Shown here: positions 39,401 through 63,151 of the stretch, piece after piece
Numbering within the stretch: position 1 is the first letter of the stretch
Layout of the letters: every line of letters starts with the position of its first letter
Assembly (NCBI GenBank): GCA_020348925.1
Contig: CP070758.1
Span: 1,196,469-1,260,468, forward strand
DNA length: 64,000 bases
Direction: 5' to 3'
DNA from: Gemmatimonadota bacterium
GTDB taxonomy: Bacteria; JBHIER01; G020348925
Made by a program: the position numbers and the translations under genes
The notes under the pieces: model-generated
The model's database searches: none
Told to the model about the DNA's origin: nothing
The model's input: the letters and a program-made list of their open reading frames with translations, nothing else

Positions 39401-40192
39401 TTTGTCAATGTGATTCTGGAAATTGGCACCTGCCCGCCGGAGGGAGTATCAAAGGGGATACATACTTCAGCAGTCAACAGTTCAGCCGTGATGGGGGTGT
39501 CAAAAATATCGGTTTCCACGGCACAAACCATCGTGTTGCCCATTTACCTCGAGACCGAGAATCGTACAGCCGGACTCCAGTTCACCCTGTGCTACGACCA
39601 AGATATATTCACACCGGGAGTTCCTCTTGTGACCCGGCGGAGCGCTCACATGACCGTCGCTTCCTCGACCGACGAAGGGAAGCTGGCCGTTGTTCTGTAC
39701 AGCACACAGGGTATGAGTATTCCGGCTGGCGCTGAACCTATCCTCACGGTGCCCCTCAGGTTAAACGACCCTGACAAGAGAGCCGAATCAACCGTCCGCT
39801 TTCAAAAAGTCATTGTTGCTCTGGATTGCGTCACGCAGGTACCTGTGCAGCACAGGGTCTCGACGTTGAGGTTGGGTGACCTGTTCCCCCAGGAATATAC
39901 CCTCTTTCAGAATTACCCCAATCCCTTCAATCCGGAAACGAGTATCGACTATCAGGTGCCTGAAACTGCAAACATTCTGCTGGCCATATTCAACACATTG
40001 GGCCAGCGCGTGCGAACCCTTGTGAACACTCGGCAAGAGCCCGGCACTTACACGTGCCGATGGGATGGGTGCAACGAGTCCGGGGAGCCTGTGTCAAGCG
40101 GAATCTACTTTTATCGTCTCAGGGCAGGTGGAACATCCCGAGACAATCAGGGTGACTTTTCACAAACGAAGAGGATGGTCCTTCTGAGATAG
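36485..40192 (+). CDS. Large Cys-rich multi-Ig surface protein with choice-of-anchor D domains, dockerin, cohesin-like domain and T9SS/FlgD-type CTD (5' truncated)
   Basis: Open from the gap edge; repeated 'YxWxGPxxFxSSEQSPTI...LDMSGDYILT' modules, SNDPDEP, 'GDVNRDGAVDVVD...ADCNLDGFIDILD', QNYPNPFNP...TKRMVLLR. Confidence 0.85.
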   Translation, partial: DDPVCGQAAVMGEVTVIQMPTPTAPPVTLCSGYAHQDLIDAIHDAGGGCNIGTETITDNGDNTYTVTCDNQGCSASATGTITEMEPCVAIAPDLSFCAGTVTVNDDLFIDNGADCSDGCSMTLSYTFDGNTAGTYTYTVTCDNTVCPPVSANGTVTVYPNPEVYASSNALDCIWIGETIELYGGPDGMISYGWRGPLSFISSEQSPTISNATLDMSGDYILTVIDANGCTDSDITPVKVCEPPDIDPPDSTKFGAVCYLGDESTKLVRVYNRGGDTLRCNCAEVIGANADDFTISISNGSPKVNPSDLNTQITMVCCPQGICFKVPAGDYVDVEVTFKPTPTGSHREAFLGLTSNDPDEPYKEVCLTGYACSSPGCPDIVIDPPSWDFEMTEAGTFEDKTFTISNVGCVDLHVTSISITGPDADQFSIVSGEILFVLEPGAPPHELVIRFQPTSTGLKTAFITILSDDCITPTFSASITGELKACFAAAPQFFICVGTPVDDAMFIDNGAGCSGCPACSLVLSYAFDGTVAGTFPYAVACTSDVCEPDTAMSLVTVVDSCMLIAPDFSICVGTPIDDNIFISAGASTGCYTILTYDCDTSAPGTCTYTVTDDNGVCEPCTASGTVTIIGLGAAALSNSPVCLGDAIRLFGEPDGMFIYTWDGPNAFFSSEQSPTITGASLDMSGDYILTATDTAGCTESDTVSVEVIHGGCPYIVFDPPFWNYGTLKNGTSEDKTFTISNIGCGDLHVTSTTLIGPNTDQFAIVSGDGSWSLAPETEHDVIIRFQPTSSGGKMASLKIERDDCEKADTTIFLMGVGFFKDPELLPFPPVTVSECDTLHFTVCNDSTLSLSLHSVTYDCDAFQILRPDFPQILDPSECETVYVEFCPAEQGHYSCFLNVNGDGPGEVIHQVLLSGLGCMDEGLLGDVNRDGAVDVVDVLVVVNYILGQVSLENAWCQADCNLDGFIDILDALGFVNVILEIGTCPPEGVSKGIHTSAVNSSAVMGVSKISVSTAQTIVLPIYLETENRTAGLQFTLCYDQDIFTPGVPLVTRRSAHMTVASSTDEGKLAVVLYSTQGMSIPAGAEPILTVPLRLNDPDKRAESTVRFQKVIVALDCVTQVPVQHRVSTLRLGDLFPQEYTLFQNYPNPFNPETSIDYQVPETANILLAIFNTLGQRVRTLVNTRQEPGTYTCRWDGCNESGEPVSSGIYFYRLRAGGTSRDNQGDFSQTKRMVLLR

Positions 40193-47074: not shown

Positions 47075-49271
47075 TTACTTCAACAACACCATCCGCTTTG
47101 TTGACTTGAAGTCGTTCGCCCTGATCCGATAGAAGTAGATGCCACTGGCCATGTCGGACGCATCCCACACAACCTTCTGGAAGCCCGCTTCCTGATTACC
47201 GTCAACAAGCACGTCAACCACCTGGCCCAGCACGTTGTACACCTCGACCCTGACCTTGGCGGCCTCGGGCAGCGCGTACTCGATGCTCGTCAGGGGGTTG
47301 AACGGGTTCGGATAGTTCTGCGACAGACTGTACTCCGTCGGCAGCGGCACCACCTTGACCGTCGAGGTCATGATCGCGCCTTCGTCGGCCCGAGCCGTGA
47401 TCCCAAGCTCTCCATACACCAGCCGCTCGAAGGTGACGGTGACCTCGCCCAGGTTCGTCTCGCTGGCGCCGGCCAGACGGATCGTTCTGCCGTCAGCCGC
47501 CCACTCGACGAGACCGTTGGCCGTCACGTCGGCCACCTTCAGCTCGGCTTCAGAGGCAATCACCATGTCGACGGCGCTGACCTCGCTCAGATCCATCGTC
47601 AGGGTCTTGCCGACCATCCTGGCCTCAAGATCGGAGACCACCGCCTTGGGCGGACCCGGCCAGTTCTGGCTCACATCACCGATGATGACAGCCTCCCAAT
47701 CCTCATCCACATAGTTCTGCTGCAGGTTGGTGTAGCAGACGCACGGAGCACCCCAATAAGCCAAGAGATCTCCGTAATACTCGAAGATCCAGTCGCCGAT
47801 GAAGTGCGACGGAATGAGATCGTTGCCCACGTAGCCGGTCACCACCCACTTCAGGATGACCGAGGCATCGAAGGCCCCGATGGTCCCGTCGCCGGTCACA
47901 TCGGCGGCCAGCGAGTCGTTGTGGCTCAGGGTTATGGCGCCGCACAGCAGGCGCAGGATCATGGTCGCGTCGAAAGAGGTCACGATCTGATCCTGGACCG
48001 TCAGGGTGTTCTCCATCTCAGGCCAGATGCAGAACGAGGCGCAGCCGGGATACGGCTGTACCCCGTAAGCTCCACTCCCATCGGTGACATCCGCCAGCGC
48101 TCCCTCGTAACAGGCATCGCCCTGGAAGATGCTCACACCCGGGACGCCCAGGAAGATATCGCTGTAGTAGACCCAACCGGCGCTCTCGAATTCTTCCACG
48201 TGCAGATAGGACTCCTCTATGGCGCAGGTGCCGTAGAGGCCCTCGTTCACCTTGCAATCCTCCTGCTGGATCGTCAGGATCAGGGTGTTGCACGCCTCGA
48301 GATCCTCAGGAATTTCGAACCCGACGTAAAAGACCTTGTACCACTCACTCACGAGAAACCCGTAGGGCAGCGGATCAGGCGGCATCGGCCACGGCGGCCA
48401 CTGCAGCGGATGATTGAAGGCCAGGGTGACGTAGATCTTGCCCTCGGTCTCCGAGTAGTCGGGCACGATGTTGTACGTCATCGCCCCGATGTTCTCGGTG
48501 ATGAGCCCCTCGTTGCCCACCTCGAAGACCTTCAGCCTGTTGTCGTAATCCACCGCTACCTGCATGGACCAGATGGGCTCAGTCAACCCGTAAGAGTAGT
48601 CGAAGTGGAATCCCACCGGGATCTCGACCCTCTGGCAGGCAAAAACATCCAGGGTGTCGAACGGGGGGTTCGCCCAAGGATCCGTCCACTCCGGAGGCGG
48701 CTCGCACCAGGCGAACTGGTACATGCAGTCCTCCACGATGAAATGGACCGTCAGGGTATCGTACAACGGCTGCCCCGTCTCGAAGGTACTCATGGCGATG
48801 AAGTCGACCCAGAAATCGTCGCAGATTCCGTGCTTGGGCGGGTGCCACTCAAAGAGCGCCTCCACGTAGCCGCACCCTCTCACCGGCCCGACGATATAGG
48901 GCGGCGCAGGCGGACCGTATACGCTGTCGAAGACCGCAAGCTCGATCCACGGACAATCATCGGTGATGGGATCGGACTGGGCCCAGAGGTATATACTGTC
49001 GCCGCACGGATGGTTGCAGTCGATGTCGTAGTCGTGGGCGTCGATCAGAAACTCATAGGTGTGGCTCTCCTGGATGACGAGCGCATCGATGGTGTCCGGC
49101 GCGTCCATGCCGAACCAGGTCACCACAGGCGGACGGTTGATGGTCTTGTAAAAATCGTTCGTCGCCATCGGTCCGCCCTCGTTGAACTCGGCGAACTCGA
49201 AGTGGATCGTGTCCTGCTGGCCCGGCTGTACCCCCGCTTGGGTATGAAAGCCGATCCTCAGAATGCAGGCA
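47075..49271 (-). CDS. Paralog of 40734-43487: cohesin/dockerin-like surface protein with short T9SS-type CTD (5' truncated)
   Basis: Shares DFYKTINRPPV, DAHDYDIDC, PLQWPPWPMPPDPL, HNDSLAAD, GDVSQNWPGP; ends [10 protein letters not shown]...TKRMVLLK. Confidence 0.85.
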
Positions 49272-49947: not shown

Positions 49948-50901
49948 TCAAAACGCGGTGGCAATTCTCTGAACTTTTTCATGGAATGGTCTGTCCCTTG
50001 CGGTCTTCGCTGTCATTCTCTTATGTACTAAACTTACGGCAGAAGGACGAAGGCCACAAAAATACTCACCAATCTCTATCAGTCTGCAGCCAGAATAGAT
50101 CCGCGCTAAATAGATGGCCACATCTCGCGCCTCATTGAGCTTTCTTCCCTTCGATAGGAATTCACCATTACAGACGCCATACACACGCTTCACCTCCGTA
50201 AAAATTTTCTCCAAATCGAGCCGTGGCTTCGCTTTTCTCAACTGCGAAATCTCCGGGTCATCGCGTCTATCTTTCAACTTCTTTTGAAACTGTTCGACAA
50301 AACTACTGCTTCCCAATACAGCACCAAACTGCATGTTTCGTAGCGGATTCTCCGCTGCTTCTTCCTCGACGAATTTTCTATATTCCCGGCGCTGCTCCTC
50401 TTTGGTCAGTCCAAACCGTTCCAGCGTCCTGCCCGTCTCGAGCCATGGTGGGCATTTGCTGAGTCCTATATATGTTCGATAGCTCGACCATGGGTCATCA
50501 GCAGGGTATTTCACTGTTTTTGCCCGCACAGGATTCATGTGAATATACCGTGTCAACTCATGTGCGTGTCGGTCTTGCTCGACAAGGATGCTCTTGAACC
50601 GCCCTTGAAACAAATGACCCACTCGATGGTACCTTTGGTTCACGTAGGTTGCATATGATTGATTGATCCACTGCATTGGTCGACTCAACTGTCCATGGGG
50701 TGTTTCAACCTCAAGGTGATAATGATTCTGCATGAGACAGTAGCCGTGAAATACAATTGCCGATCTTTCGTGTGCGTCTCGAAGAAGGCTTAGAAACTTT
50801 TCGTAATCTTCATCGTGAAAGAAAATATTCTGACGTGCTACTCCTCTGGAAGTGATGTGATAAAATGCTCCAGGGTATTCGATACGTAGTTGACGCGCCA
50901 A
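49948..50901 (-). mobile_element. REP-associated tyrosine transposase (RAYT, Y1 HUH) with C-terminal DnaA_C-like HTH
   Basis: MARQLRIEYPGAFYHITSRG, YCLMQNHYHL (HUH), HLFQGRFKS, RYIHMNPVRA, WSSY, ARDVAIYL. Confidence 0.92.
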
Positions 50902-51520: not shown

Positions 51521-53422
51521 TTGTTTGGCAGAAGAAGGAGCGAGACCTTGATCAGGCATTGTTTCTCTTCAGGGCTGGCCGTCATTTTGGTGATGGGTTT
51601 TGGAGTGGGGACGAATTCGGCTCAGCCGCTGGTCACGATAGAATTGAACTTGAACCAGGAGGACGTGCGCATCCTGGGTGGTCGTTCGGGCGATCACTCA
51701 GGCCATGCCGTGGCCAGCGGTGACATCAACGGCGACGGCTACGATGACGTTCTCATCGGGGCGTATGCGGCGTCCCCATCTGGGGGCAGGAGTGGGGGCG
51801 AGACGTACGTCATTTTCGGCTCTGGGGCGCTGCCGGCCACGGTTGATTTCGCCCGGGGCAGAAGCGACGTGTGCATCTTGGGCGATGATGAGGGGGATCT
51901 GTCAGGCTATAGTGTGGCCAGTGGTGACGTCAACGGCGACGGGTACGATGATGTCATCATCGGGGCATGGGCGGCATCCCCACGAGGGGGCAAGAGTGGA
52001 GGCGAGACGTACGTCATTTTCGGCTCGGGGACACTGCCGGATACGATTGACCTGGCCGCTGGTGAGGAGGACGTGCGCGTTCTGGGCGACGATGAATATG
52101 ACGATTCAGGCCAAGCCGTGGCCAGTGGTGACATCAACGGCGATGGGTTCGATGAGATCATTATTGGGGCGTGGGCGGCGGACCCACCCGGCGGCGGGAA
52201 TGCCGGCGAGACGTATATCATCTATGGCTCGGATGGGCTGCCGGATACGGTCGACCTGGCCGGGGGCGAGGAGGACGTGCGCATTCTGGGCGACGATGAC
52301 GGGGACTTGTCGGGCTTCGCCCTGGCCAGCGGTGACATGAATGGCGACGGGTACGATGATGTCATCATCGGGGCTCCGTGGGCAGACCAGCGTGTTGGAC
52401 TGAGCGCCGGTGAGGCGTATATCATCTTCGGTTCAGGGCTGCTGCCTGATACGGTCGACTTGGACAGGGGCGAGGAGGATGTGCGCATCCTGGGCGAGCA
52501 TTGGGGTGATCAGTCGGGCCATGCCGTGGCCAGTGGTGACATCAACGGCGATGGGTACGGTGATGTCGTCATTGGGGCCTGGGCGGCGAATCCACCTGGC
52601 GGTTCCGGTGCCGGTGTGACGTACGTCGTCTACGGTTCGGAGGGCATGCCGGATACGGTTGACCTGGCCGGGGGTGAGGGGGGTATGCGTATTCCGGGTG
52701 GTGATGCCGGGGATGTGTCAGGCTTCGCCCTGGCCAAGGGCGACGTCAACGGCGACGGGTGCGATGACGTCATCATCGGGGCTCCCCAGGCACGGGCACT
52801 GGCCGGCAAGACTTACGTCATGTGTGGCTCCGGGGCACTGCCGGATACGATCGACTTGGCCGGGGGCGAGGAGGATGTCCGTATTCTGGGTGATGATGAG
52901 TATGACCGGTCAGGCAGAGCCGTGGCCAGTGGCGACGTCAATAGCGACGGGTACGATGATGTCATCATCGGGGCGAACGAGGCCGATCCTCCTGGAGGCT
53001 CGAATGCCGGTGAGACGTACATTATATATGGAAGGTCGCTCCTCGTCACCGCTTTTGAGCTGTTGCAGACTTATCCGAATCCATTTCATTCCACCATCAC
53101 CATCCGTTACACTCTGCCGCACACGATACGCATAACGCACCCCCAAAGAGATCCCCCGGAGGGAGCCCGATCCTACGGGGAGGGGGCGGACGCTTTCGGC
53201 GAGGCACAACGGAAGATGTCCTTGCACACGACGCTGAAGATTTATACCATTCACGGGCAGGCCGTGCGGACGTTAGTGGATGAGGTCAAAGAGACGGGAC
53301 ATCACGAGGTGACATGGGATGAGAGGGATCGCTTCGGTAACGAGGTGGAGAACGGTGTCTATCTCTATCGCCTCGCGGTAAACAACTTCACAACCACCAA
53401 GCGCATGGTGTTGATGAGGTGA
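51521..53422 (+). CDS. FG-GAP (integrin-alpha-like) seven-blade propeller protein with T9SS/FlgD-type CTD
   Basis: Seven 'G.AVASGD(I/V)NGDGYDDVIIGA' repeats; signal-like N-terminus (start may be TTG 51548); QTYPNPF...TKRMVLMR. Confidence 0.9.
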   Translation: MFGRRRSETLIRHCFSSGLAVILVMGFGVGTNSAQPLVTIELNLNQEDVRILGGRSGDHSGHAVASGDINGDGYDDVLIGAYAASPSGGRSGGETYVIFGSGALPATVDFARGRSDVCILGDDEGDLSGYSVASGDVNGDGYDDVIIGAWAASPRGGKSGGETYVIFGSGTLPDTIDLAAGEEDVRVLGDDEYDDSGQAVASGDINGDGFDEIIIGAWAADPPGGGNAGETYIIYGSDGLPDTVDLAGGEEDVRILGDDDGDLSGFALASGDMNGDGYDDVIIGAPWADQRVGLSAGEAYIIFGSGLLPDTVDLDRGEEDVRILGEHWGDQSGHAVASGDINGDGYGDVVIGAWAANPPGGSGAGVTYVVYGSEGMPDTVDLAGGEGGMRIPGGDAGDVSGFALAKGDVNGDGCDDVIIGAPQARALAGKTYVMCGSGALPDTIDLAGGEEDVRILGDDEYDRSGRAVASGDVNSDGYDDVIIGANEADPPGGSNAGETYIIYGRSLLVTAFELLQTYPNPFHSTITIRYTLPHTIRITHPQRDPPEGARSYGEGADAFGEAQRKMSLHTTLKIYTIHGQAVRTLVDEVKETGHHEVTWDERDRFGNEVENGVYLYRLAVNNFTTTKRMVLMR

Positions 53423-54625: not shown

Positions 54626-54748
54626 ATGAGGAAATTAGTCACACTGACATTGACACTTTTTGCTGTTTCGTTTCTTGTGGCGGGCATGGTTTCAGCGGGC
54701 AAGATCGAGGTCTTGAAGCCGACGCTGGAGGCAGATTTGTCGGAAGAT
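54626..54748 (+). CDS. N-terminal fragment of a secreted protein (truncated by gap)
   Basis: AGGAGG SD; MRKLVTLTLTLFAVSFLVAGMVSA signal peptide. Confidence 0.75.
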
Positions 54749-54849
54749 NNNNNNNNNNNNNNNNNNNNNNNNNNNNNNNNNNNNNNNNNNNNNNNNNNNN
54801 NNNNNNNNNNNNNNNNNNNNNNNNNNNNNNNNNNNNNNNNNNNNNNNNA

Positions 54850-55677
54850 ACATGCATTTCCTCGTGTGAGGAACTGGATTGTGACGATGGAAACCCGTGC
54901 ACTGAGGACTCCTGTGATCCTTCATTCATTCAGTGTGTGCACGATACGTTGTCCTCGGGAGTTTCTTGCGATGATGGTGATCCCTGTACTGAGAATGACA
55001 TCTGCCAGAATGGGATCTGTGCAGGGACGCCCAGGGAATGCATCGATAGAGACGGGAACACCTATCAGACGGTAAAGATTGGCGATCAATGTTGGATGGC
55101 CGAAAATCTGAGGGTGACACACTACCGTAACGGCGATCCCATACACAATGTCACCGATAGTACAGCGTGGATCAATCTGACAGGTGGGGCCTACTGCGAG
55201 TATGACAATGATGATGATAACGTGCCTGTGTATGGGCGATTGTACAACTGGTACGCAGTGAGCGACAGCCGCAATATCGCCCCTGAGGGCTGGCATGTTC
55301 CAAGTGATGAAGAGTGGAAGCAACTGGAGATGTACCTTGGGATGAGCCAGTCGGAGGCTGATGATACAAGGTATCGTGGGACAGACCAGGGCGGCAAATT
55401 AAAAGCGACGGGTACAATTGAAGAGGGGACAGGGTTATGGTATGCTCCAAACGTTGGAGCCACAAATGAAAGCGGGTTTTCCGCGGTGCCTGGTGGGGCT
55501 CGCGACGGTGACGATGGGAACTTCATTAATTTTAGTTATCAATCCCCCCTCTGGTCTTCAACAGAAGGCGGGAGTAGCACCGCCTGGAGCCGAGGCTTGA
55601 GTTGCCTCAGTGCACGGGTTTGCCGCAACCACATCATTAAGAAGCATGGTTTTTCCGTGCGTTGTGTGAGGGATTGA
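54850..55677 (+). CDS. Cys-rich CDDGNPCTED repeats plus Fib_succ_major (FISUMP) domain protein (5' truncated)
   Basis: DRDGNTYQTVKIGDQCWMAENL, YGRLYNWYAV, APEGWHVPSDEEW, NESGFSAVPGG, WSSTE, GFSVRCVRD. Confidence 0.92.
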   Translation, partial: TCISSCEELDCDDGNPCTEDSCDPSFIQCVHDTLSSGVSCDDGDPCTENDICQNGICAGTPRECIDRDGNTYQTVKIGDQCWMAENLRVTHYRNGDPIHNVTDSTAWINLTGGAYCEYDNDDDNVPVYGRLYNWYAVSDSRNIAPEGWHVPSDEEWKQLEMYLGMSQSEADDTRYRGTDQGGKLKATGTIEEGTGLWYAPNVGATNESGFSAVPGGARDGDDGNFINFSYQSPLWSSTEGGSSTAWSRGLSCLSARVCRNHIIKKHGFSVRCVRD

Positions 55678-55945
55678 CTATTGGACTATTCTATCCCGCG
55701 AAGCGGGTGGGACACTCTTTACAATGCATTTTCCCATATAAGGTTATGTGTCTATTTTTACGATAAAGATATCGACCTTTTCTCCAGATATGGGTGATTC
55801 AATAATAATCACAACTGATCTTTGTGTTTGGAATCATTATTTTTATCTTATTCTCACGATGATTAGCGAAGATAAATGCATTATTAATTGTGCTGTAATC
55901 GTTTGCAAGGAGTGTCCGCGAGTGACTCATGATTCTTGTGAAAGA

Positions 55946-56269
55946 ATACAGATTCCGGCTGAATACAGTCTTTCACAAAACTATCCGAATCCTTTCAATT
56001 CCACTATCACCATCAACTCTACGCTTCCAGACGCAGGATGCAAAACGCAAGATGCAAGGTAAGAAGTTTCTCTCAAAATTTGCATTAGCCTGGGACAAGA
56101 GGTTCGAGCCCTGGTTATTGATACTCAAAACCCTGATTCTTATGCAGTGACCTGGGATGGGAAGAATGCAATGGGAAATGCTGTGCTGAGTGGTGTCTAT
56201 TTTTATCTCCTTGCAGAGGGTGATTTCAAAGAGACGAAAAGAATGCTGTTACTCAGATCGCAGAAATAG
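55946..56269 (+). pseudogene. Orphan degenerate T9SS/FlgD-type CTD
   Basis: [16 protein letters not shown]...DAR*EVSLKI...SGVYFYLL...TKRMLLLR; in-frame TAA at 56060 where the phosphatase CTD has CAA; no convincing passenger ORF. Confidence 0.8.
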
Positions 56270-56316
56270 GTGTTTCTTCATCTTATTTGAAATTCTGTAA
56301 AAAAATCTAAAAAAAG

Positions 56317-56375
56317 TGAAACTTCTGATTGAAATGGACGTCTATATCTTATAGATATATATCATATTGATATAT
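56317..56375 (+). promoter_or_regulatory. ECF-type promoter and two overlapping TATATC-N5-GATATA operators upstream of the PadR gene
   Basis: TGAAAC-N16-CGTCTA (56317-56344); inverted repeats TATATCT-tat-AGATATA (56343-56359) and ATATATCA-tat-TGATATAT (56357-56375). Confidence 0.65.
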
Positions 56376-56385
56376 GGAGGTTCAA

Positions 56386-56949
56386 ATGGCTCGTATAAAC
56401 AAAACTCAATTTGCCATCCTGGGTTGTCTCAGCATGAAGCCCATGTCGGGATATGATATACAGAATTTCACCAAGGCTTCTATTGGGTACTTCTGGCAAG
56501 AAGGGTTTGGCCAAATCTACCCGGTTCTAAAGCGGCTGCTCGCTGGAGGTCTGGTCTCCCGAAAAACAGAACCACAGGAAGGTAAACCCGATCGCCACGT
56601 TTACAGCCTTACTACCGCTGGCAAGGAAAAGCTTTTGGAATGGCTGACGGAAGAAACAAATCCTCAGCCGGTGCGCAACGAATTTCTGCTCAAAATCTTC
56701 TTCAGCTCGAATGTGGGCCCGTCGAGTATAGGTAAGGCCCTGCAAAAGTACCTTGAACAACAGAAGAGTATCTTGAAGGTATATCAGCAGTTGCAGAAGC
56801 ATCTTAGGGAGCATGAAGCTAACGAGCAGTTTCCATATTGGTTTACCACACTGAAGTTCGGAATCTACCTTACCCGCGCAAGGATGCGGTGGTGCAAAGA
56901 GACACTGGATGTCTTCAGTCAACTTCAGGAGGAAAAAAATAATCTCTAG
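56386..56949 (+). CDS. PadR/AphA-family transcriptional regulator
   Basis: AILGCLSMKPMSGYDI, YFWQEGFGQIYPVL, KPDRHVYSLTTAG, RNEFLLKIFF. Confidence 0.93.
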   Translation: MARINKTQFAILGCLSMKPMSGYDIQNFTKASIGYFWQEGFGQIYPVLKRLLAGGLVSRKTEPQEGKPDRHVYSLTTAGKEKLLEWLTEETNPQPVRNEFLLKIFFSSNVGPSSIGKALQKYLEQQKSILKVYQQLQKHLREHEANEQFPYWFTTLKFGIYLTRARMRWCKETLDVFSQLQEEKNNL

Positions 56950-56980
56950 CAACCAAAAAACTCTCGGCGAAATGGCGAGA

Positions 56981-58669
56981 ATGAAAAACGCAATCCTGAG
57001 AAGTCTGTATGGTCTGATCTTGATGATGGCGCTGCCTAGTGTATCGGCAGGCGACAACTCATCGGCTTCGGATTTCATCAAGACTAGTGCAATGGTATCT
57101 ATGGCCGATGGTACACGATTATCCACGAACGTTTTTTTGCCATCCAGTTCCGGCTCTTATTCCGTAATATTGATTCGATCACCTTATTCGGGCTCGTGGC
57201 TTGACTCCGTGGCCAACAGGTTTACCAAAGAGGATTATGCCGTTGTGATACAATATGTTCGTGGTTTGTACGAATCGGAAGGGCAGTTCTATCCTTTTGT
57301 ATATGAAAAAACCGACGGATTGGCTACCCTGGATTGGATAAACAGGCAGCCTTGGTCAGACGGGCATGTCGGTGTTTGGGGGGTATCTTACCTCTCGTTT
57401 TGCGGTTTTGAAATCGCCTCGACCAGCCACCCATCGCTCAAAGCAATGATCAATATCTCCGGGTGGGCCGATCTCGGCACACATTTAACACGTGGTGGGG
57501 CTTTTCGGTTGATGGATCACCTTCCATGGTTAATCATGAAAACATCCGGCAACGACCGGATTCCTTCAAAAGCGTGGAATGGTATTTTCAAGACTACTCC
57601 CCTATCTCAGTTTCTTGGTGGAGCTGAGGAGCAGGCGCACATCTCGGGTATCCTGGAAGAGCCGTACCCGTTCAATGATATCCGGATTCCAATCCTGCAT
57701 GTCACCGGATGGAACGACTATATCTATCGCAGCACGCTGTTGGCGTATGAATCAATCAACAAGAATGCCACTGCAGGCAACCATCAGAAAATCATCATCG
57801 GCCCGTGGGCGCACAATCAGGTTTTCTCCGCTGACAGTACCACCTATGGCGATGTCGAATTCGGCCACACCTCCAGCATGGGGCTCGATTCTATTCTAAC
57901 ATTGTCCGTGGCCTGGTTTGACCGCTATATCAAAGGTAAGAATAACATGGTTGATTCTAAGCCGCGGGTGAGATTTTTTGTGATGGGTGAAAACCACTGG
58001 CACGATACTCATGAATGGCCTCCGGCAAATACAGTTGCAAAGAAGTGGTATCTCGCCGACACCGTGAAGACTGGTCGGCTGGATGTAAGTCCGCCTGCCT
58101 CCGAGTCAATCTTTTCATTTGAGTTTAATCCCCACAATCCGGTACCCACCATTGGCGGTATTACCGGTTGGTTCCACCCATTCAATCTGGGAGTCAAGGA
58201 CCAGAGTCCGTTGGCCAGTCGCCCGGATATTTTATTCTTCGATTCGGCCCCCTTGTCTGATGATCTTGTCCTGGCGGGGCCAATCAAGGTTGAAATCTAC
58301 GCGTCAACCGACAGTATCGATACGGACTTTACCGCCAAGCTTGTGGAAGTGCGCCCGGATGGTTACGCTCGAATGATTGAGGACGGCATCATTCGCACGC
58401 GGTATCGCAAGGGCCTCAATTCGTCGGTTTTTATAACGCCGAATGAAGTCTATCGCTATCAGGTCAACCTTGGTCAGACGGCGATACGTATTCCCAAGGG
58501 AAATGCATTGCGATTGGAAATTTCCAGCAGCAATTTCCCCAAATTTGACAGGAATCCGAATACCGGAGTGGATCCAATTTCGGCTACGGAATTTCGCACA
58601 GCGAAGCAGAAAGTGTATATGTCTCCAAAGTATCCGTCACATATCGTTTTGACGGTTCTCTCCAAGTGA
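56981..58669 (+). CDS. Secreted CocE/NonD-family (S15) serine hydrolase
   Basis: MADGTRL, RSPY, VRGLYESEG, WGVSY (Ser), TGWND (Asp), GPWAH (His), DTDFTAKL, SSSNFPKFDRNPNTG. Confidence 0.93.
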   Translation: MKNAILRSLYGLILMMALPSVSAGDNSSASDFIKTSAMVSMADGTRLSTNVFLPSSSGSYSVILIRSPYSGSWLDSVANRFTKEDYAVVIQYVRGLYESEGQFYPFVYEKTDGLATLDWINRQPWSDGHVGVWGVSYLSFCGFEIASTSHPSLKAMINISGWADLGTHLTRGGAFRLMDHLPWLIMKTSGNDRIPSKAWNGIFKTTPLSQFLGGAEEQAHISGILEEPYPFNDIRIPILHVTGWNDYIYRSTLLAYESINKNATAGNHQKIIIGPWAHNQVFSADSTTYGDVEFGHTSSMGLDSILTLSVAWFDRYIKGKNNMVDSKPRVRFFVMGENHWHDTHEWPPANTVAKKWYLADTVKTGRLDVSPPASESIFSFEFNPHNPVPTIGGITGWFHPFNLGVKDQSPLASRPDILFFDSAPLSDDLVLAGPIKVEIYASTDSIDTDFTAKLVEVRPDGYARMIEDGIIRTRYRKGLNSSVFITPNEVYRYQVNLGQTAIRIPKGNALRLEISSSNFPKFDRNPNTGVDPISATEFRTAKQKVYMSPKYPSHIVLTVLSK

Positions 58670-58866
58670 AAGCCAGCTTAATCATGTCAAGACTGAGGAG
58701 ATTAAACAGTATAATTCATTTGAAACATTCGATCCTTTTAGAGAGATCGAGAGTGGCCACGGTCATGATTATGGATTGTACGATGTCAGAAACAGTATGT
58801 GGACAGAGTTGATCAAGCCTTGAGTGATTTCTACTTTTTGGCTGGAGGAAAACAGTGAGGAGCAAT

Positions 58867-58926
58867 TTTTATAACCTAACTGTGGGAAATTTCACAGCGA
58901 CCAGAAGAATGGTCCTGATGAAATAG
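58867..58926 (+). pseudogene. Short remnant of a CTD 3' end
   Basis: '[19 protein letters not shown]' with no intact upstream frame. Confidence 0.65.
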
Positions 58927-58962
58927 GATAGGATCATTATTTCTAATCTGGAGGTGAGATCT

Positions 58963-61353
58963 ATGTTCATGAGAAGAAAATCCTTTCTGAGGAGATCGTG
59001 TGTATTGAGTTTTATTGTTACTCTTCTTTTCCATGGCATTATCCATGCCGGAGTCAAGCATGTTATCGTTTTGATTTCCGACGGATGGGGTTACAATCAG
59101 ATTGCGGCCACTCGGTACTGGACCGGAATAGCAAGAGAGTATGAATCCTGGGATGTTGTTTACCCAATGAGTACATACATGTGGTTGGGGAATTATGACA
59201 CGAATCAAGCCTGGAGCGACTTCAACTATGTTCTTTCCCGTTACACGGACTCCGCAGCGGCTGCTACGGCTATGTCGACGGGTGTAAAGACGTATCAAGG
59301 TGCGATCTGTTTCGATTCGAGAATGCAGCCATTGGAGAACCTTATTGAGCGGGCGGAGATGCTTGGTCTGGCAACGGGTGTGATCACCAGTGTGGAATGG
59401 TCTCATGCAACTCCGGCAGGCTTTGTTGCCCATAATCGTTCCCGGAATAACTATGATCAGATTGCCAGGGAAATGGTGTACGAGAGCGCTGTCGATGTGA
59501 TTATGGGAGCAGGTCATCCGATGTATGGGAATGAGGGTGAGCCTGTACCAAGTCCCCAGAGCGGGGGAATCAACTACGGCTATGTCGGAGGTGAAGCGAC
59601 GTGGGATGAACTTGTTGCAGGAACAGCCGGCGGTGATGCCGATGGCGACGGAATCGATGATCCCTGGACCCTGATCCAGACGCGGGAGGAGTTCCAGGCT
59701 CTGGCACACGGTGATACACCGGACCGTGTTCTTGGCACGGCCCAGACACGTTTGACATTGCAGCAGGCACGACCGGGCGGTCCGGGCCGAAACGATCCCC
59801 AGCCTCCGTATACTGAAGCCTTCATCTCGACCGTTCCAACCCTGGAAGAGATGACGAGAGCTGCTTTAAATGTGCTTGATAACGATCCTGACGGTTTTTT
59901 CCTGATGATCGAGGGTGGCGCCGTCGATTGGGCCAACCATGCCAACCAGCTCGGTCGTATGATCGAGGAGCAGGTCGATTTTGACAATGCCTTCGAGGTG
60001 GTGATTGAATGGGTGGAGGCGAACAGTGATTGGGAGGAGACGTTGGTGATAGTCACCGGAGACCACGAATGTGGCTACCTCTGGGGACCAAACTCAGGTT
60101 CGCCAGCAACCTTCAATCCTATCGTAGATAACGGTACCGGCGTTATGCCGGGCTACAGATATTACTCAGGATACCACACAAATTCCCTGATTCCACTGTT
60201 TGCCCAAGGTTTCGGCAGCGAGCGCTTCGAGGCGTATGCGATAAATGATGATATTCAACGAGGCCCTTACATCGATAACACCAATATCGCCCATGTCATC
60301 TTTGGTCTGTACGATGAATCTGCTGTTGTATACACATCGCAATCCTGCGCTGCACCGGGGAGTATCACCACGGTTTTCGTCAATGTTGATAATCAAACCC
60401 GAATAGAAGTTCCAATAGATAGTGTCTCGATTGAATTGGGATTTGATGAGGACCTTTTGACTCCCATCGAGGTCGAGGCAACAGCAAGGACAATCAATTT
60501 CAGTGAATTCGGTTGGGATGTCCCGAATCCTGGTTTATTGACCCTTCGTATTTCCGGGAACAGGATTGAATGTGGGGTCGGACCCGTAGCCGAGGTGCAG
60601 TTCGCTGTGGATGATGAGGCACCTTCTGGTGAAAGTACTCAGCTTTTTTTTCGGGAAGTTGACTTTATGAGTGCTCAGGATGGGGAACTTCTGGTGTTGA
60701 GTGAAGATGGAACGATCTTCTTCGGGGAATTTGGGAGAGGGGATGTCAGCTCCGATTGTGCCGTTGATATTTTGGATGTATTGGGTGTTGTGAATATTAT
60801 CCTGGGAGTGGGAGATCCACCGACTGAGGATCAATTATGGGCTGGGGATTGTAACGGAGATGGGAATGTCGACGTCTTGGATGCTCTCGGTATTGTGAAT
60901 GTTATTCTGGGGAGTGGTCAGTGCGAACCCGGCGCCGGTCGATCCGGGATTACCCCGGAAGTGATTGCGTTCCTGAATTCGCTGAAGCCTTATCTGCCTG
61001 TTGAAGACTTTGTCAGGTTTATGGCTCTGGTCAAGGAAGTACAGATGCCGATCGAGTACAGGCTCAATCAGAATTATCCCAATCCCTTCAATCCCGCTAC
61101 CACCATCCACTACACTCTTCCAGACGCAGGACACAGGACACAAGACGCAGGACAAGAAATTTCACTCAAAATTTACAATATATTGGGACAAGAAGTGAGA
61201 ACACTGGTCAATGGTATTCAGAACCCTGGTTCTTGTGAGGTGTCCTGGGACGGGAGGGATGCGTTGGGCAAGAGTGCACCCAGTGGGGTCTATTTCTATC
61301 GACTTTCAACGGGTGAATTCACAGCAACGAAACGGATGGTATTGATGAAATAG
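58963..61353 (+). CDS. PhoA-type alkaline phosphatase fused to cohesin-like, dockerin and T9SS/FlgD-type CTD
   Basis: ISDGWG, YTDSAAAATA (catalytic Ser), HATPAG, MIEGGAVDWANH, TGDHECG; 'GDVSSDCAVDILD...GDCNGDGNVDVLD'; QNYPNPFNP. Confidence 0.92.
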   Translation: MFMRRKSFLRRSCVLSFIVTLLFHGIIHAGVKHVIVLISDGWGYNQIAATRYWTGIAREYESWDVVYPMSTYMWLGNYDTNQAWSDFNYVLSRYTDSAAAATAMSTGVKTYQGAICFDSRMQPLENLIERAEMLGLATGVITSVEWSHATPAGFVAHNRSRNNYDQIAREMVYESAVDVIMGAGHPMYGNEGEPVPSPQSGGINYGYVGGEATWDELVAGTAGGDADGDGIDDPWTLIQTREEFQALAHGDTPDRVLGTAQTRLTLQQARPGGPGRNDPQPPYTEAFISTVPTLEEMTRAALNVLDNDPDGFFLMIEGGAVDWANHANQLGRMIEEQVDFDNAFEVVIEWVEANSDWEETLVIVTGDHECGYLWGPNSGSPATFNPIVDNGTGVMPGYRYYSGYHTNSLIPLFAQGFGSERFEAYAINDDIQRGPYIDNTNIAHVIFGLYDESAVVYTSQSCAAPGSITTVFVNVDNQTRIEVPIDSVSIELGFDEDLLTPIEVEATARTINFSEFGWDVPNPGLLTLRISGNRIECGVGPVAEVQFAVDDEAPSGESTQLFFREVDFMSAQDGELLVLSEDGTIFFGEFGRGDVSSDCAVDILDVLGVVNIILGVGDPPTEDQLWAGDCNGDGNVDVLDALGIVNVILGSGQCEPGAGRSGITPEVIAFLNSLKPYLPVEDFVRFMALVKEVQMPIEYRLNQNYPNPFNPATTIHYTLPDAGHRTQDAGQEISLKIYNILGQEVRTLVNGIQNPGSCEVSWDGRDALGKSAPSGVYFYRLSTGEFTATKRMVLMK

Positions 61354-61429
61354 ACTTCGATATATTAGGAAGAAATGTCCGGGAGGTTTCTCGAAACTGA
61401 AGTATGAAGGTTCTAATCGAGGAGGTCTC

Positions 61430-63151
61430 ATGAAAAAGCGAGTTTTCCATACAGGCTTGGTAGTTCTACTCATTGGCTTCGCGGTCTCCGTGTCGGCCCA
61501 AATAGTGAGTGCCCAAACAGAAAGAGGGGATGTAAATGGTGATGGAGCAATCAATGTTCTGGACGCTATCCAGACAGTGAATATTGTTCTGGGAACGTCA
61601 CCACCACCGAGTAACGAGGAACTCTGGGCAGCAGATTGCAATGGTGACGGATTGGCGAATGTACTTGACGTTCTGGGTATAGTCAATGTTGTTCTGGAGA
61701 CCAGCACGTGTGTTTCCTCATGTGAGGAGTTGGACTGCGACGACGGGAATCCGTGTACTGAGGATTACTGTGATTCATTACTCGTTCAGTGTCAACATGA
61801 CCCACATGATCCTGGAACACCATGCGATGATGATGATCCTTGTACCGAAAACGATGTGTGCGATAATGGAATCTGTCGGGGGATACCGAAAGACTGCGAA
61901 GAGGGTGACCTGTGCACGGAAGATTTTTGTGAATCGAATACCGGTGAATGCAGACACACTCCGAGAGACTGCAATGACGGCGACCCGTGTACGGATGATT
62001 CCTGTAATCCTTTAACTGGTGGGTGTGAGCACATCAATACCTTCGATCCATGTGAAGAGGGCGATGCCTGTATTGCCATAACGAATGGTTTTTTAATCGA
62101 CGGTACAGGTGCAGGGCCGATAGCAAATGCGATCATTATCATTGAGGGTGAGTATATTAAGTACGTAGGAACAGGATCGAGCTTGGAGATACCTGCCGGG
62201 ACAGAGATAATTGACGTTCAGGGATCGTATATATTGCCGGGATTCATGAATACTCACGTCCATAGAGGATATGTTGAAAATAACCTCAGGGAGTGGGCGA
62301 GATCCGGAGTCACAACAGTGCGCGATGTGGGTAATTCCGTCAATACTCCTGAAGAAGCTTTTACCATACGAGATGCGCTTCTCGAAGACAATAGAAATGC
62401 CCGGCTTGTCGCCGCAGGACCGATTGTAACGACTGTGGGCGGCTATGGAAGTTATCCGGTTACATCACCGGATGATGCCGAAGAAGTAATAAATTGGCTG
62501 ATAGATGTCGGAGCTGATATCATTAAGATTGCCATCGAGGATAATCTCCAGGGTCGGACATGGCCTATGCTCTCTATGGAGGAAATTACGAGGGTCGTTG
62601 ATACCGCACATAGCAGAGGGAAACTGGTCACTGCTCATATAAGCCGATCTCATCAACTTGATATGGCCATTCAAGGCGGAGTGGACGATGTCAATCACAT
62701 GGTTATCAATTACGTGCCTGATGAGCTCATTACGTCTATGATTGAGGATGATATGTATTGGGTACCGACGCTTGAACTCTGGGACGGCGTGAGCCAGATG
62801 TACAACTTGAATTGGGATACCGTAGCGAAGAATAATCTTCGGCGTTTTGTTCAGGCAGGAGGTAAAGTCGCTTTGGGTACTGACTATGATGGATATACAA
62901 CTCCGTTTGATTTGGGTATGCCGATTACCGAAATTCAATTGATGACTGAAGCGGGAATGACACCCATTCAGATCATTGTTGCTGGGACGAAGCATGCTGC
63001 TCATGTTTGTGATCTTGAAGATGAATTGGGAACCATTGGGCCGTGCAAGATTGCCGATATACTTATAGTGAACGGTAATCCTCTTGAGGACCTGGAATAT
63101 CTGTTGGATGTCCGAATAGTAATTCACAATGGGGAGATTATTAGAAATTAG
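61430..63151 (+). CDS. Secreted dockerin, Cys-rich CDDGxPCT repeats and metal-dependent amidohydrolase
   Basis: Signal peptide; GDVNGDGAINVLD...ADCNGDGLANVLD; PGFMNTHVH, GVTTVRDVG, ADIIKI, ALGTD, GNPLEDL. Confidence 0.9.
   Translation: MKKRVFHTGLVVLLIGFAVSVSAQIVSAQTERGDVNGDGAINVLDAIQTVNIVLGTSPPPSNEELWAADCNGDGLANVLDVLGIVNVVLETSTCVSSCEELDCDDGNPCTEDYCDSLLVQCQHDPHDPGTPCDDDDPCTENDVCDNGICRGIPKDCEEGDLCTEDFCESNTGECRHTPRDCNDGDPCTDDSCNPLTGGCEHINTFDPCEEGDACIAITNGFLIDGTGAGPIANAIIIIEGEYIKYVGTGSSLEIPAGTEIIDVQGSYILPGFMNTHVHRGYVENNLREWARSGVTTVRDVGNSVNTPEEAFTIRDALLEDNRNARLVAAGPIVTTVGGYGSYPVTSPDDAEEVINWLIDVGADIIKIAIEDNLQGRTWPMLSMEEITRVVDTAHSRGKLVTAHISRSHQLDMAIQGGVDDVNHMVINYVPDELITSMIEDDMYWVPTLELWDGVSQMYNLNWDTVAKNNLRRFVQAGGKVALGTDYDGYTTPFDLGMPITEIQLMTEAGMTPIQIIVAGTKHAAHVCDLEDELGTIGPCKIADILIVNGNPLEDLEYLLDVRIVIHNGEIIRN

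Follow-up and report, generated by a model that had tools for sequence, protein, structure and literature searches.

The FISUMP protein and the amidohydrolase encoded in the window, the 64,000-nt stretch of DNA analyzed here, probably belong to a small secreted family built on a single N-terminal module, composed of a Sec signal peptide, a type I dockerin and a disulfide-rich stalk of the Dicty_CTDC type, onto which unrelated payloads have been shuffled, the window FISUMP gene being cut by the assembly. This reading draws on the module shared by these proteins, the architecture of their paralogs, the list of their payloads, the fold of the FISUMP domain and the absence of parts of a diversity-generating retroelement (DGR), all of which are observed here.

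A shared stalk next to the dockerin

The FISUMP protein is a 275-aa open frame (54850-55677, +) that opens with TCISSCEELDCDDGNPCTEDSCD and closes with a stop codon. The amidohydrolase is a 573-aa protein (61430-63151, +) in which TCVSSCEELDCDDGNPCTEDYCD begins at residue 93, straight after the Dockerin_1 match (residues 33-84). The features of the window considered below are as follows.

54626..54748, + strand: 5′ end of an open frame, a signal peptide followed by GKIEVLKPTLEADLSED, running into the N spacer
54749..54848, no strand: contig spacer, an N run of uniform length (100 N)
54850..55041, + strand: Cys-rich stalk, residues 1-64 of the FISUMP fragment, two Dicty_CTDC-type repeats (PF00526)
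55042..55677, + strand: FISUMP (Fib_succ_major) domain, PF09603, C-type-lectin-like fold, with stop codon
58954..61353, + strand: alkaline phosphatase, cohesin, dockerin and T9SS C-terminal sorting domain (PF00245, PF00963, PF00404, PF18962/PF13860)
61430..61516, + strand: signal peptide region of the amidohydrolase, residues 1-29, a hydrophobic N-terminus ending in VSAQ
61517..61705, + strand: type I dockerin, residues 30-92, PF00404
61706..61897, + strand: shared Cys-rich stalk, residues 93-156, BLASTP match to the FISUMP fragment
61898..62074, + strand: two extra Cys-rich repeats, residues 157 to about 215, absent from the FISUMP protein
62075..63151, + strand: amidohydrolase payload, PF01979 (E 2.3e-22, residues 267-570), with stop codon

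The original prediction quoted peptides from the two proteins as closely matching behind the dockerin, and the alignment confirms it: residues 1-64 of the FISUMP fragment and residues 93-156 of the amidohydrolase are identical at 44 of 64 ungapped positions (69%; BLASTP, E 1e-28), with 73.5% identity in their DNA over 166 nt. The stretch matches PF00526 in both proteins (E 8.3e-7 and 29.1 bits against a cut-off of 27 in the FISUMP fragment; three stretches and 59.8 bits in the amidohydrolase), and 10 Cys are invariant across the 15 sequences of the stalk alignment, in which orthologs range in stalk length from two repeats to many. The dockerin ahead of it is recognized in the amidohydrolase both by PF00404 (E 1.1e-9, 38.8 bits, cut-off 22.9) and by a hidden Markov model (HMM) built from the genome's own dockerins (E 3.8e-28).

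Pfam assigns the stalk to a broad repeat family, so that the match might be no more than any two copies of such a widespread Cys-rich repeat would show, with no shared chassis behind it. As many as 9460 representative proteins match a dockerin-plus-stalk query at E ≤0.001, the top ones being giants with 10-60 tandem repeats. The identity values speak against such an origin, which we regard as highly improbable. The later Cys repeats of the amidohydrolase (from residue 155) are only 31% identical to the FISUMP stalk, and unrelated proteins with this repeat type, which forms arrays of 10-60 units in giant proteins, reach about 38-54%; the dockerin-proximal repeat pair is therefore specifically shared. 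Moreover, the dockerin and the first two repeats occur together in seven ORFs of this genome and in 15 public clusters (≥95% of the module), and a FISUMP paralog of the window gene (cluster P0004) is 63% identical to the amidohydrolase over residues 1-161, their payloads being unrelated. An assignment of the stalk as an ADAM disintegrin/Cys-rich domain was rejected, having a weak Foldseek match only (probability 0.66, rmsd 6.7).

The truncated FISUMP gene and its missing 5′ end

The N run at 54749-54848 had been taken for a gap within the FISUMP gene. The genome record, a single one of 5,038,017 bases, holds 205 N runs that are each exactly 100 long, and this uniform spacer (205 of 205 alike) corrects that view: the run marks a contig boundary, the true size of which is not given by its 100 N, and the gene neighborhood across it is not to be trusted. 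Six such spacers lie inside the window.

The left end of the FISUMP fragment's contig coincides exactly with the dockerin/stalk junction, and the assembly would have split the gene at this point, with loss of a 5′ end made up of signal peptide and dockerin. We attribute the cut to the fact that the module is multi-copy and assembles poorly. A second copy is likewise cut by a gap, within the stalk, at genome position 976200, and public contigs covering the FISUMP stretch come only in pieces of 57-522 nt (four runs compared); several bins are without cover in some runs, a lack that is evidence for neither side. One 172-nt contig of run X5 is identical to 54849-54920 and extends 88 nt past the left end, which implies that the DNA continues there. 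No match to an exact 41-mer taken from the fragment's start was found in the metagenome contig collection.

The same truncation could denote a dead, 5′-truncated remnant, given that the record shows neither a start codon nor upstream sequence. We consider this very unlikely, because all 275 codons are open and the nearly invariant FISUMP residues are kept, because the public contig continues leftwards with no difference in the 72 nt shared, and because another copy of the module also breaks the assembly in this part of the module.

The homologs indicate what the gene has lost. A complete paralog in the same genome (L002:1225-2328, 367 aa) runs from signal peptide through dockerin and the same stalk to FISUMP, its leader ending in FFVSAQ with the dockerin next, and shares 77% of residues with the window fragment along its entire 275 aa (85.5% of nucleotides over 825 nt). 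PF00404 is flagged in its own cluster, P0004. Among the 120 homolog clusters listed, Dockerin_1 is present in 13 of 13 that combine Dicty_CTDC and Fib_succ_major, and seven of the eight other FISUMP ORFs of the genome have an N-terminal dockerin. By these layouts the gene has most likely lost a signal peptide and a dockerin at its 5′ end, in keeping with the original prediction. In 80 metagenome loci, a strict regular expression picked up a dockerin motif ahead of FISUMP in 15, a lower bound on which nothing here is based.

We looked for the missing piece among the genome's own dockerins. Three of 254 dockerin matches (HSPs) are gap-cut at their downstream end, and only one of them starts at residue 1 with a signal peptide:

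genome 3538082-3537837, - strand: orphan signal-peptide-dockerin fragment of 82 codons, at a contig end

In the alignment to the paralogs this fragment ends at nt 246 and that of the window begins at nt 276, leaving 29 nt missing, in frame. Its dockerin is nearest to that of the amidohydrolase (87% nt identity, versus 67% to the FISUMP paralog's), and the fragment may come from a third gene that the assembly lacks.

The open frame at 54626-54748 could be the true FISUMP start if the scaffold order is real, the gap then being short, the signal peptide already in view and the missing piece coming with or without a dockerin. It lies directly upstream on the same strand, is open into the N run and has a good signal-peptide-like N-terminus (signal peptides were assigned by eye throughout). 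That assignment is nonetheless improbable in our estimate: the N run is the uniform spacer found at all 205 boundaries, the reading frame differs from that at 54850 across the 100 N, and aligned module proteins (14 full-length, selected because they carry the module) begin the dockerin some 8-10 residues after the signal peptide. The frame instead reads GKIEVLKPT after its signal peptide, and its best in-genome matches are the N-termini of ORFs of 1336 aa (genome 1913633, E 6.6e-4) and 1160 aa (genome 4879406, E 0.001), both with T9SS-type tails. It is thus probably, judging by these matches, the start of another, large T9SS-secreted protein and not of the FISUMP gene.

Payloads carried by the module

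Regular expression and tblastn searches returned the same set of seven stalk-bearing ORFs in the genome, with FISUMP (two), amidohydrolase (two), beta-helix plus MopE repeats (one) and MopE repeats (one) as payloads and one payload cut by a gap. The dockerin stands directly ahead of the stalk in all six ORFs with an intact front, and PF00404 scores on the other module proteins are comparably clear (E 4.8e-11, 3.5e-10, 6.2e-11, 1.4e-10 and 4.5e-12). No glycoside hydrolase domain was found among the seven proteins, nor a T9SS-type tail among the six ORFs with an intact 3′ end. Coverage of the dockerin and stalk together is at least 95% in 18 of 105 matches, three from this genome and 15 public, which carry FISUMP (12), amidohydrolase (4), a beta-lactamase family domain (1, contributed by public metagenomes) and MopE repeats only (1). 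The C-terminal domains catalogued behind the linker hence comprise FISUMP, amidohydrolase, beta-helix, MopE and beta-lactamase family, and the proposal of interchangeable payloads on a signal-dockerin-Cys stalk is borne out by the seven ORFs here and the 15 public clusters. A shared front end with differing working ends is ordinary domain shuffling, although the docking system around it is unusually large.

The pairing had also been put forward as one with no described case. A full-text literature search indeed found no paper describing a dockerin-FISUMP fusion, but the architecture itself is common, Dockerin_1 occurring in 46 of the 120 listed FISUMP homolog clusters. A search of 30 relatives turned up a single genome of the same family; many dockerins are found there, and its scored matches include no full module-FISUMP match. 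For the amidohydrolase, a scan of genome contigs yielded no close ortholog of the module protein, returning dockerin-only matches (one unclassified MAG) and amidohydrolases at 22-31% identity. The alkaline phosphatase gene lies directly upstream of the amidohydrolase gene, and this pair has a second copy elsewhere in the genome (81% identity over 610 aa).

Structure and diversification of the FISUMP domain

The window FISUMP domain matches the full PF09603 profile (positions 1-187 of 187; E 6.1e-58, 196.6 bits, cut-off 33.9), and its model has a pLDDT of 94.1. In structure the domain comes closest to the DGR variable protein TvpA of Treponema denticola (2y3c_A; rmsd 3.6, 158 residues aligned), at a Z of 8.6 that barely exceeds the typical best Z of 7-8 for models with no clear match; the rest of the VIA-align list consists of FGE-like, Lcl C-terminal and C-type lectin chains. 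The domain is presumed on the basis of this model to be a ligand-binding head. The stalk of the FISUMP fragment is modeled at pLDDT 83-88 and the dockerin plus stalk of the paralog at 82-90 (83-88 for the dockerin, residues 30-95 of P0004); the full-paralog model, built from a 15-row alignment, is usable for dockerin and stalk only, with pLDDT 23-36 over nearly all of the FISUMP part (residues 181-367). The dockerin model superposes on solved type I dockerins with TM scores (target) of 0.7-0.88 and rmsd of 1.0-2.0 over about 60 residues, at a Foldseek probability of 1.00 though with E values of only 5e-3 and weaker. Against the PDB, Foldseek returned nothing at E ≤0.001 for either model, its weaker rows agreeing with the VIA-align list.

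This fold bears on the suggestion that the FISUMP head might be a DGR target, with a C-terminal variable region rewritten by a retroelement. TvpA is joined in the list by the DGR variable proteins Mtd (Z 6.5) and TaqVP (Z 6.1), and one class of DGR variable regions is reported, in the available text of PMC5758913, to overlap DUF1566/Fib_succ_major motifs. The two closest paralogs also differ most in their last third (29 of 75 residues, versus 33 of 200), and their last 25 codons hold 11 differences distributed 8/3/0 over the codon positions. The components and the mutational signature of a DGR are nevertheless lacking. A search of the whole genome (96.3% complete) for RVT_1 gave no match at E ≤0.001, none of the four candidates scored passing, and blastn with the nine FISUMP genes found no template-like repeat outside coding paralogs, all matches lying in other FISUMP genes or stalk copies. 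Differences from A make up 13 of 44 in the last 225 nt of the paralogs, where transitions dominate, and changes from A are 9 of 33 and 13 of 52 in public contigs of runs X1 and X2, so variation is not adenine-specific. We therefore abandon the suggestion of a DGR-diversified binder as extremely unlikely. Diversity of the head would arise instead by gene duplication and ordinary point divergence, mostly in the C-terminal third.

Cohesins, dockerins and secretion

The genome contains 81 cohesin matches, of which 73 exceed the cut-off and several share one open frame, and at least 148 dockerin matches (among 150 scored of 527 candidates). The HMM from its own dockerins hits 295 ORFs, 102 of which have a T9SS-like tail by a crude regular expression. 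A SprA homolog is present (E 1.1e-44), together with one secretin gene. One cohesin lies in the gene upstream of the amidohydrolase (residues 465-574, about 60346-60675), the product of which is a candidate surface anchor. With these numbers, it is plausible that module proteins dock to the genome's cohesins, as the original prediction had envisaged for a binder plugging into a cohesin scaffold.

As a single test pair, we modeled residues 455-592 of this neighbor, its cohesin, together with residues 28-96 of the amidohydrolase, its dockerin, and two Ca. The prediction supports the complex weakly, with a score of 0.35 (best of three controls 0.00). Of 78 solved complexes 51 attain the mark, as do 2 of 108 mismatched pairs; among those attaining it at ≤0.60 are just 5 of the 78, but every one of the 4 mismatches (of 180) that passed. 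The runs agree in no fewer than 95% of contacts and partner pLDDT is at least 88. Calcium was included here, unlike in the calibration set, and since cohesin-dockerin complexes are already solved the pass may reflect likeness only.

Proposed function

The function that we infer for the module proteins, in terms of binding cohesin, surface location, stalk role and ligand, would start with Sec export, after which the stalk would be oxidised into a rigid spacer and the calcium-binding dockerin would plug into one of the genome's many cohesins. Several of these are on proteins with T9SS sorting domains, proteins that are therefore expected to be anchored at the cell surface. The FISUMP head, a C-type-lectin-like binding module predicted from its fold to bind a ligand, would be kept off the scaffold by the stalk, serving as a plug-in targeting or adhesion unit beside plug-in enzymes. 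The module proteins themselves are without a T9SS sorting domain, which counts against this account as far as their crossing of the outer membrane is concerned.

A wider reading, which we offer tentatively and think rather doubtful, is that this sparsely sampled sediment lineage runs a cohesin-dockerin surface display at least the size of the largest cellulosomes, T9SS-anchored and not devoted to cellulases, in which FISUMP heads on disulfide stalks act as targeting modules diversified by paralogy and module recombination in place of DGRs. Under it, the lack of a sorting domain of their own means that module proteins would dock in the periplasm onto sorting-domain cohesin proteins and cross with them.

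FISUMP domains of uncharacterized function abound in Fibrobacter and in many uncultured bacteria. In the present genome, with its wealth of cohesins, a true dockerin bears the domain as its cargo, which argues for a binding head delivered to scaffolds and not for a part of the scaffold. The module illustrates the reuse of a single front end for both binders and enzymes, gives ready experimental access to cohesin and glycan binding, and, with at least 148 dockerins and 81 cohesin matches around it, places a T9SS-bearing uncultured bacterium level with the most elaborate cellulosome producers.

Comparison with known systems

In the usual cellulosomal layout the dockerin is C-terminal and follows a Pro/Thr-type linker. 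The type I dockerin-cohesin pairs of clostridial and ruminococcal cellulosomes (e.g. C. thermocellum, P. cellulosolvens) share with the module the dockerin family PF00404, a dockerin structure on which our model superposes and the presence of many cohesins in the same genome. They differ in that the dockerin here is N-terminal with a Cys-rich stalk next to it, in that the payloads are a lectin-like head, amidohydrolase, beta-helix and MopE repeats and not glycoside hydrolases, and in that the host, having T9SS genes and sorting domains, is presumably diderm. By profile counts the repertoire is as large as the largest cellulosome repertoires described, which in the available text of PMC5590126 comprise 78 cohesins and 212 dockerin ORFs in P. 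cellulosolvens and 180-223 dockerins in R. flavefaciens.

Closer in setting is the Cloacimonadota ‘Ca. Stygibacter’, for which the available text of PMC8542988 describes, in silico, a cellulosome-like system of dockerin-bearing secreted enzymes and a cohesin protein with a T9SS-type C-terminal domain for surface attachment, the dockerins being C-terminal in enzymes resembling chitinases, amylases and peptidases, and the scaffoldin described being a single one of 3755 aa. On that description, both are non-Firmicute systems, known in silico, of dockerin-bearing secreted proteins and T9SS-anchored cohesin proteins, whereas N-terminal dockerin-stalk modules, FISUMP heads and dozens of cohesin proteins set the present genome apart.

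As in Fibrobacter, the FISUMP domain (TIGR02145/PF09603) matches its profile over the full length and is multi-copy, at nine places in the genome. The available text of PMC4704652 gives 17-119 FISUMP copies and no cohesin or dockerin modules for the Fibrobacteres genomes studied, and relates that the domain was at one time proposed as a possible cohesin analogue in organisms without such modules; here, unlike in Fibrobacter, it is cargo on a true dockerin in eight of nine copies, counting the window copy as inferred. An N-terminal lipoprotein signal is said to be frequent in the FISUMP family in the portion of PMC5758913 available. DGR variable proteins (TvpA, Mtd, TaqVP; the Legionella LdtA class) are of the same fold class, and paralog divergence here likewise falls in the C-terminal third, but reverse transcriptase, template repeat and adenine-specific mutation pattern are absent. 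Dicty_CTDC (PF00526) repeat proteins, finally, match the stalk by profile; the repeats, which thousands of large bacterial proteins string together in long arrays, are here only two to four in number, a short spacer fused directly behind a dockerin.

Shared stalk and interchangeable payloads

The original prediction held that two proteins of the window are built on a common cysteine-rich stalk:

54850-55677, + strand, FISUMP fragment, a 275-codon open frame with a terminal stop
61430-63151, + strand, amidohydrolase protein of 573 aa (translation and Pfam)

Pfam analysis places a Dicty_CTDC repeat at residues 10-31 of the FISUMP fragment and a full-length Fib_succ_major domain at residues 75-274 (E 6.1e-58). 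In the amidohydrolase protein, a hydrophobic leader and a Dockerin_1 domain (residues 33-84, E 1.1e-9) are followed by three Dicty_CTDC stretches and by the amidohydrolase domain proper (residues 267-570, E 2.3e-22). Residues 1-64 of the FISUMP fragment align without gaps to residues 93-156 of the amidohydrolase, with 44 of 64 positions identical (BLASTP, E 1e-28; 73.5% DNA identity over 166 nt), as against 31% identity to the Cys repeats further along the amidohydrolase and roughly 38-54% between stalks of this type and foreign repeat-bearing proteins. At the level of sequence comparison this likeness exceeds that of generic repeats, confirming the common stalk. Public contigs from sediment metagenomes differ at window 54921-54925 by a five-base variant that turns DPSFIQ of the stalk into DPLLIQ, the residue pattern found in paralogs; this may reflect strain variation or exchange between copies.

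Listing all proteins that carry this linker, together with their C-terminal domains, as had been proposed, returned seven open reading frames (ORFs) in the genome with several payload types; the same seven were recovered by a motif scan of six-frame ORFs and by tblastn.

Table. Genome ORFs carrying the stalk and their payloads
Window FISUMP fragment: FISUMP
Paralog at genome 555494: FISUMP
Window amidohydrolase: amidohydrolase
Genome 3681601-3683370: amidohydrolase (paralog)
829-aa protein: MopE-type repeats and right-handed beta helix
662-aa protein: N-terminal region, then dockerin and stalk, then MopE-type repeats
Fragment at genome 976200: cut by a spacer

None of the six ORFs of this module (signal peptide, type I dockerin and stalk) that have an intact 3′ end carries a type IX secretion (T9SS)-type tail. 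In public data, 18 of 105 dockerin-plus-stalk matches span at least 95% of the query in a search that took in proteins of 315-1003 residues only; three come from this genome and 15 do not, and their payloads are FISUMP (12), amidohydrolase (4), a beta-lactamase family domain (1) and MopE repeats only (1). The seven genome ORFs and 15 public proteins, with FISUMP, amidohydrolase, beta-lactamase family, MopE and beta-helix payloads, bear out the proposal of one chassis with interchangeable payloads. The number of Cys repeats varies between orthologs from two to many, with a PKD-type insert in some, and ten of the cysteines are conserved in every row of a 15-protein alignment. An exhaustive search of the 128-residue module against 1.84 billion representatives yielded 9460 matches, topped by giant proteins in which 10-60 copies of the repeat stand in tandem, so that the stalk amounts to a short piece of an extracellular repeat that is very common.

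The missing 5′ end of the FISUMP gene

The FISUMP domain occurs at nine places in the genome. The closest copy to the window fragment (L002:1225-2328) is a complete gene of 367 aa, with 77% protein and 85.5% DNA identity over the fragment's whole length, and is laid out as signal peptide, dockerin, the same two-repeat stalk and FISUMP. Six other copies join signal peptide and dockerin directly to FISUMP without a stalk, and one has neither signal peptide nor dockerin; a hidden Markov model (HMM) built from the genome's own dockerins confirmed a dockerin in seven of the eight other copies. Among the best 120 of 7410 public homolog clusters, 46 combine Dockerin_1 with Fib_succ_major, and all 13 that also contain Dicty_CTDC have a dockerin, 12 of them from outside this genome. 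The dockerin end directly precedes the SSCxELDCDD junction in 14 of 14 full-length rows of the 15-protein alignment; since its members were picked for having a dockerin-stalk-FISUMP-type architecture, this shows a fixed dockerin/stalk junction and not its frequency. The complete paralog and the homolog clusters together provide strong indirect evidence that the missing part of the window gene most likely encodes a signal peptide and a dockerin, as originally predicted.

The fragment is cut on its left by a run of exactly 100 N (54749-54848). The genome record is a single piece of 5,038,017 bases with 205 N runs, each exactly 100 long; it therefore strings together 206 contigs, and the uniform run gives no measure of the missing sequence. 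A second module copy (genome 976200) is likewise cut by a spacer, inside its stalk, which fits repeat-induced assembly breaks. Another surface-protein repeat breaks the assembly at 36200-36384: the contig to the left of the 36385 spacer stops within a tandem repeat rich in Cys (GTVCTxPEGCCxPDGSCSDLDPLCC). The open frame at 49948-50901 (- strand), which adjoins a contig spacer, encodes both an IS200-like Y1 transposase domain and a DnaA C-terminal helix-turn-helix. At 51521-53422, a T9SS-tailed protein with FG-GAP repeats lies in DNA with a G+C content of 60-64%, against 38-49% around it.

Left of the spacer lies a further open frame:

54626-54748, signal-peptide-like leader followed by GKIEVLKPTLEADLSED (translation)

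Its leader is unlike those of the module proteins. Within the genome, the frame comes closest to the N-termini of two ORFs, 1336 and 1160 residues long (E 6.6e-4 and 0.001), both ending in T9SS-type tails. It is probably the start of another gene on another contig, the evidence on its identity being weak because the fragment has only 41 residues. The genome holds a family of T9SS-tailed proteins with a signal peptide, the motif G(Q/K/E)IEVL(R/K)P and a conserved region some 250 residues long (...TLxWRT...WFxP...) to which the searches made gave no name (genome 1977184-1979531, 1788733-1790802, 4069918-4071504, 1909674-1913681 and 4879367-4882846); the 54626-54748 frame appears to be a member.

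The first 41 bases of the FISUMP fragment have no exact match in the metagenome contig collection, and four public sediment-metagenome runs yield only short contigs over the fragment. One of these, a 172-nt contig of run X5, is identical to the window over 54849-54920 and carries on for another 88 bases to the left, which shows that the gene does not stop there in nature. Within the genome record, three of 254 dockerin HSPs are cut at their downstream end by an N run, and only one of them aligns from residue 1 with a leader:

3538082-3537837 (genome), - strand, orphan leader-dockerin fragment of 82 codons ending one base from a spacer

Aligned to the paralogs, the orphan reaches as far as nucleotide 246 and the window fragment begins at 276, so that 29 bases would be missing and the join would be in frame. 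The orphan dockerin has 87% DNA identity to that of the amidohydrolase and 67% to that of the FISUMP paralog, and the window stalk is 88% DNA-identical to the paralog's stalk; the join would therefore be a mosaic, which could itself have caused the assembly break. The orphan could equally be part of another, unassembled gene, and we give the join roughly an even chance. Another module-type signal-peptide-dockerin start (L123, genome 978630-978911, - strand) ends in ...GIGEC and is followed by TGA and then by an open frame of 459 aa that has a start of its own; it could be a pseudogene, two genes or a case of read-through.

Fold and diversification of the FISUMP head

A model of the full FISUMP paralog (15-row alignment) has pLDDT 82-90 over dockerin and stalk and a poor head. 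Its dockerin can be overlaid on solved type I dockerins taken from cohesin-dockerin complexes, with TM (target) 0.7-0.88 and an rmsd of 1.0-2.0 across some 60 residues, though with Foldseek E-values of only 5e-3 and weaker. The window fragment was modelled from a 121-row alignment with pLDDT 94.1 and pTM 0.86, and its head was compared in an all-against-representatives structural search.

Table. Structural matches of the FISUMP head
Treponema denticola variable protein of a diversity-generating retroelement (DGR), 2y3c_A: Z 8.6, rmsd 3.6, 158 aligned
PvdO: Z 8.4
FGE paralogue: Z 7.8
Legionella Lcl C-terminal domain: Z 7.3
Bordetella Mtd: Z 6.5
TaqVP: Z 6.1
C-type lectin domains (dozens): Z 4.6-6

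The top Z of 8.6 is slightly above the level that models with no match usually reach, and the match list is uniform in fold; the predicted fold of the head is C-type-lectin/FGE-like. With this fold, and with one class of DGR variable regions described in PMC5758913 as overlapping DUF1566/Fib_succ_major motifs, the proposal of a DGR-diversified binder was reasonable. It did not hold up: RVT_1 has no match in the whole genome (96.3% complete, four candidates scored), and no template repeat was found, all blastn matches of the nine FISUMP genes falling in other FISUMP genes or stalk copies. Nor are the substitutions adenine-specific; changes between the closest paralogs in the last 225 nt are mostly transitions, 13 of 44 starting from A, and the corresponding counts in public contigs are 9 of 33 and 13 of 52. 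The two closest paralogs differ at 29 of 75 residues in the last third vs 33 of 200 elsewhere, and divergence is greatest between window 55450-55650 and genome 556370-556570. Their last 25 codons contain 11 differences, distributed 8/3/0 over the codon positions, and the lack of third-position differences suggests selection on the binding face. Given the missing DGR machinery and the ordinary substitution pattern, the diversity of the head seems to arise from duplication and from ordinary substitution under such selection.

Candidate cohesin partner

Directly upstream of the amidohydrolase lies a possible partner:

58954-61353, protein with alkaline phosphatase, cohesin, dockerin and T9SS sorting domains (Pfam)

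The pair (58954-63151) is duplicated at genome 3681601-3686600 (L016, L121). The upstream genes are 81% identical over 610 residues, the open frame of the second copy beginning only at the equivalent of residue 190; because the duplication is segmental, it is not independent evidence of coupling. Complex prediction for one pair, the neighbour's cohesin (residues 455-592) and the amidohydrolase dockerin (residues 28-96) with two calcium ions, which are unlike the calibration, scored 0.35 against 0.00 for the best of three controls. Of 78 solved complexes 51 reach the mark, as do 2 of 108 mismatched pairs; with a score of 0.60 or below, just 5 of the 78 reach it, together with 4 of 4 passing mismatches (of 180). 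The runs share at least 95% of their contacts and partner pLDDT is at least 88, but cohesin-dockerin complexes have already been solved, so the pass may reflect likeness only. The prediction weakly favours docking of the amidohydrolase dockerin by this cohesin and does not single out a partner among the 81 cohesin matches of the genome.

Under the working scheme we propose, module proteins would be exported by Sec, the stalk would become a stiff spacer on oxidation, presumably a rod with five disulfides, and the N-terminal dockerin would dock in a calcium-dependent manner onto a cohesin of a presumably surface-anchored protein, leaving the payload pointing outward. The FISUMP head would then bind a particle, polymer or cell, and enzyme payloads would provide catalysis.

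Comparison with known cohesin-dockerin systems

Of the 81 cohesin matches, frequently several per open frame, 73 are above the Pfam cut-off. Dockerin matches number at least 148 (148 of 150 scored; 527 candidates), and the HMM of the genome's own dockerins recovers 295 dockerin ORFs, 102 with a T9SS-type tail by a crude regular expression and 22 with the dockerin inside the first 80 residues. The genome also encodes a SprA homolog (E 1.1e-44) and one secretin. The window holds several dockerin proteins with T9SS tails, and the following members of the repertoire:

7320-10172, cohesin-plus-dockerin protein
10830-13679, cohesin-plus-dockerin protein
36515-40192
40734-43487
47075-49168, - strand
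58954-61353

Among 30 relatives searched there is one same-family genome, the remainder being related at domain level only.

A full-text literature search returned no paper describing a dockerin-FISUMP fusion. Fibrobacteres are described in the relevant part of PMC4704652 as having many FISUMP copies and neither cohesin nor dockerin, and an old proposal cited there regards the FISUMP domain as a cohesin analogue. For P. cellulosolvens, called the most elaborate system, PMC5590126 gives 78 cohesins and 212 dockerin ORFs, and for R. flavefaciens 180-223 dockerins; by sequence-based counts, the repertoire of this T9SS-bearing genome is on the scale of the largest cellulosome systems described, or larger. 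The module is a case of domain shuffling inside a cohesin-dockerin system, of a known kind in an unusual form and host. A similar picture, in silico in both cases, is reported in PMC8542988 for Cloacimonadota, where dockerin enzymes accompany a cohesin scaffold with a T9SS sorting domain.
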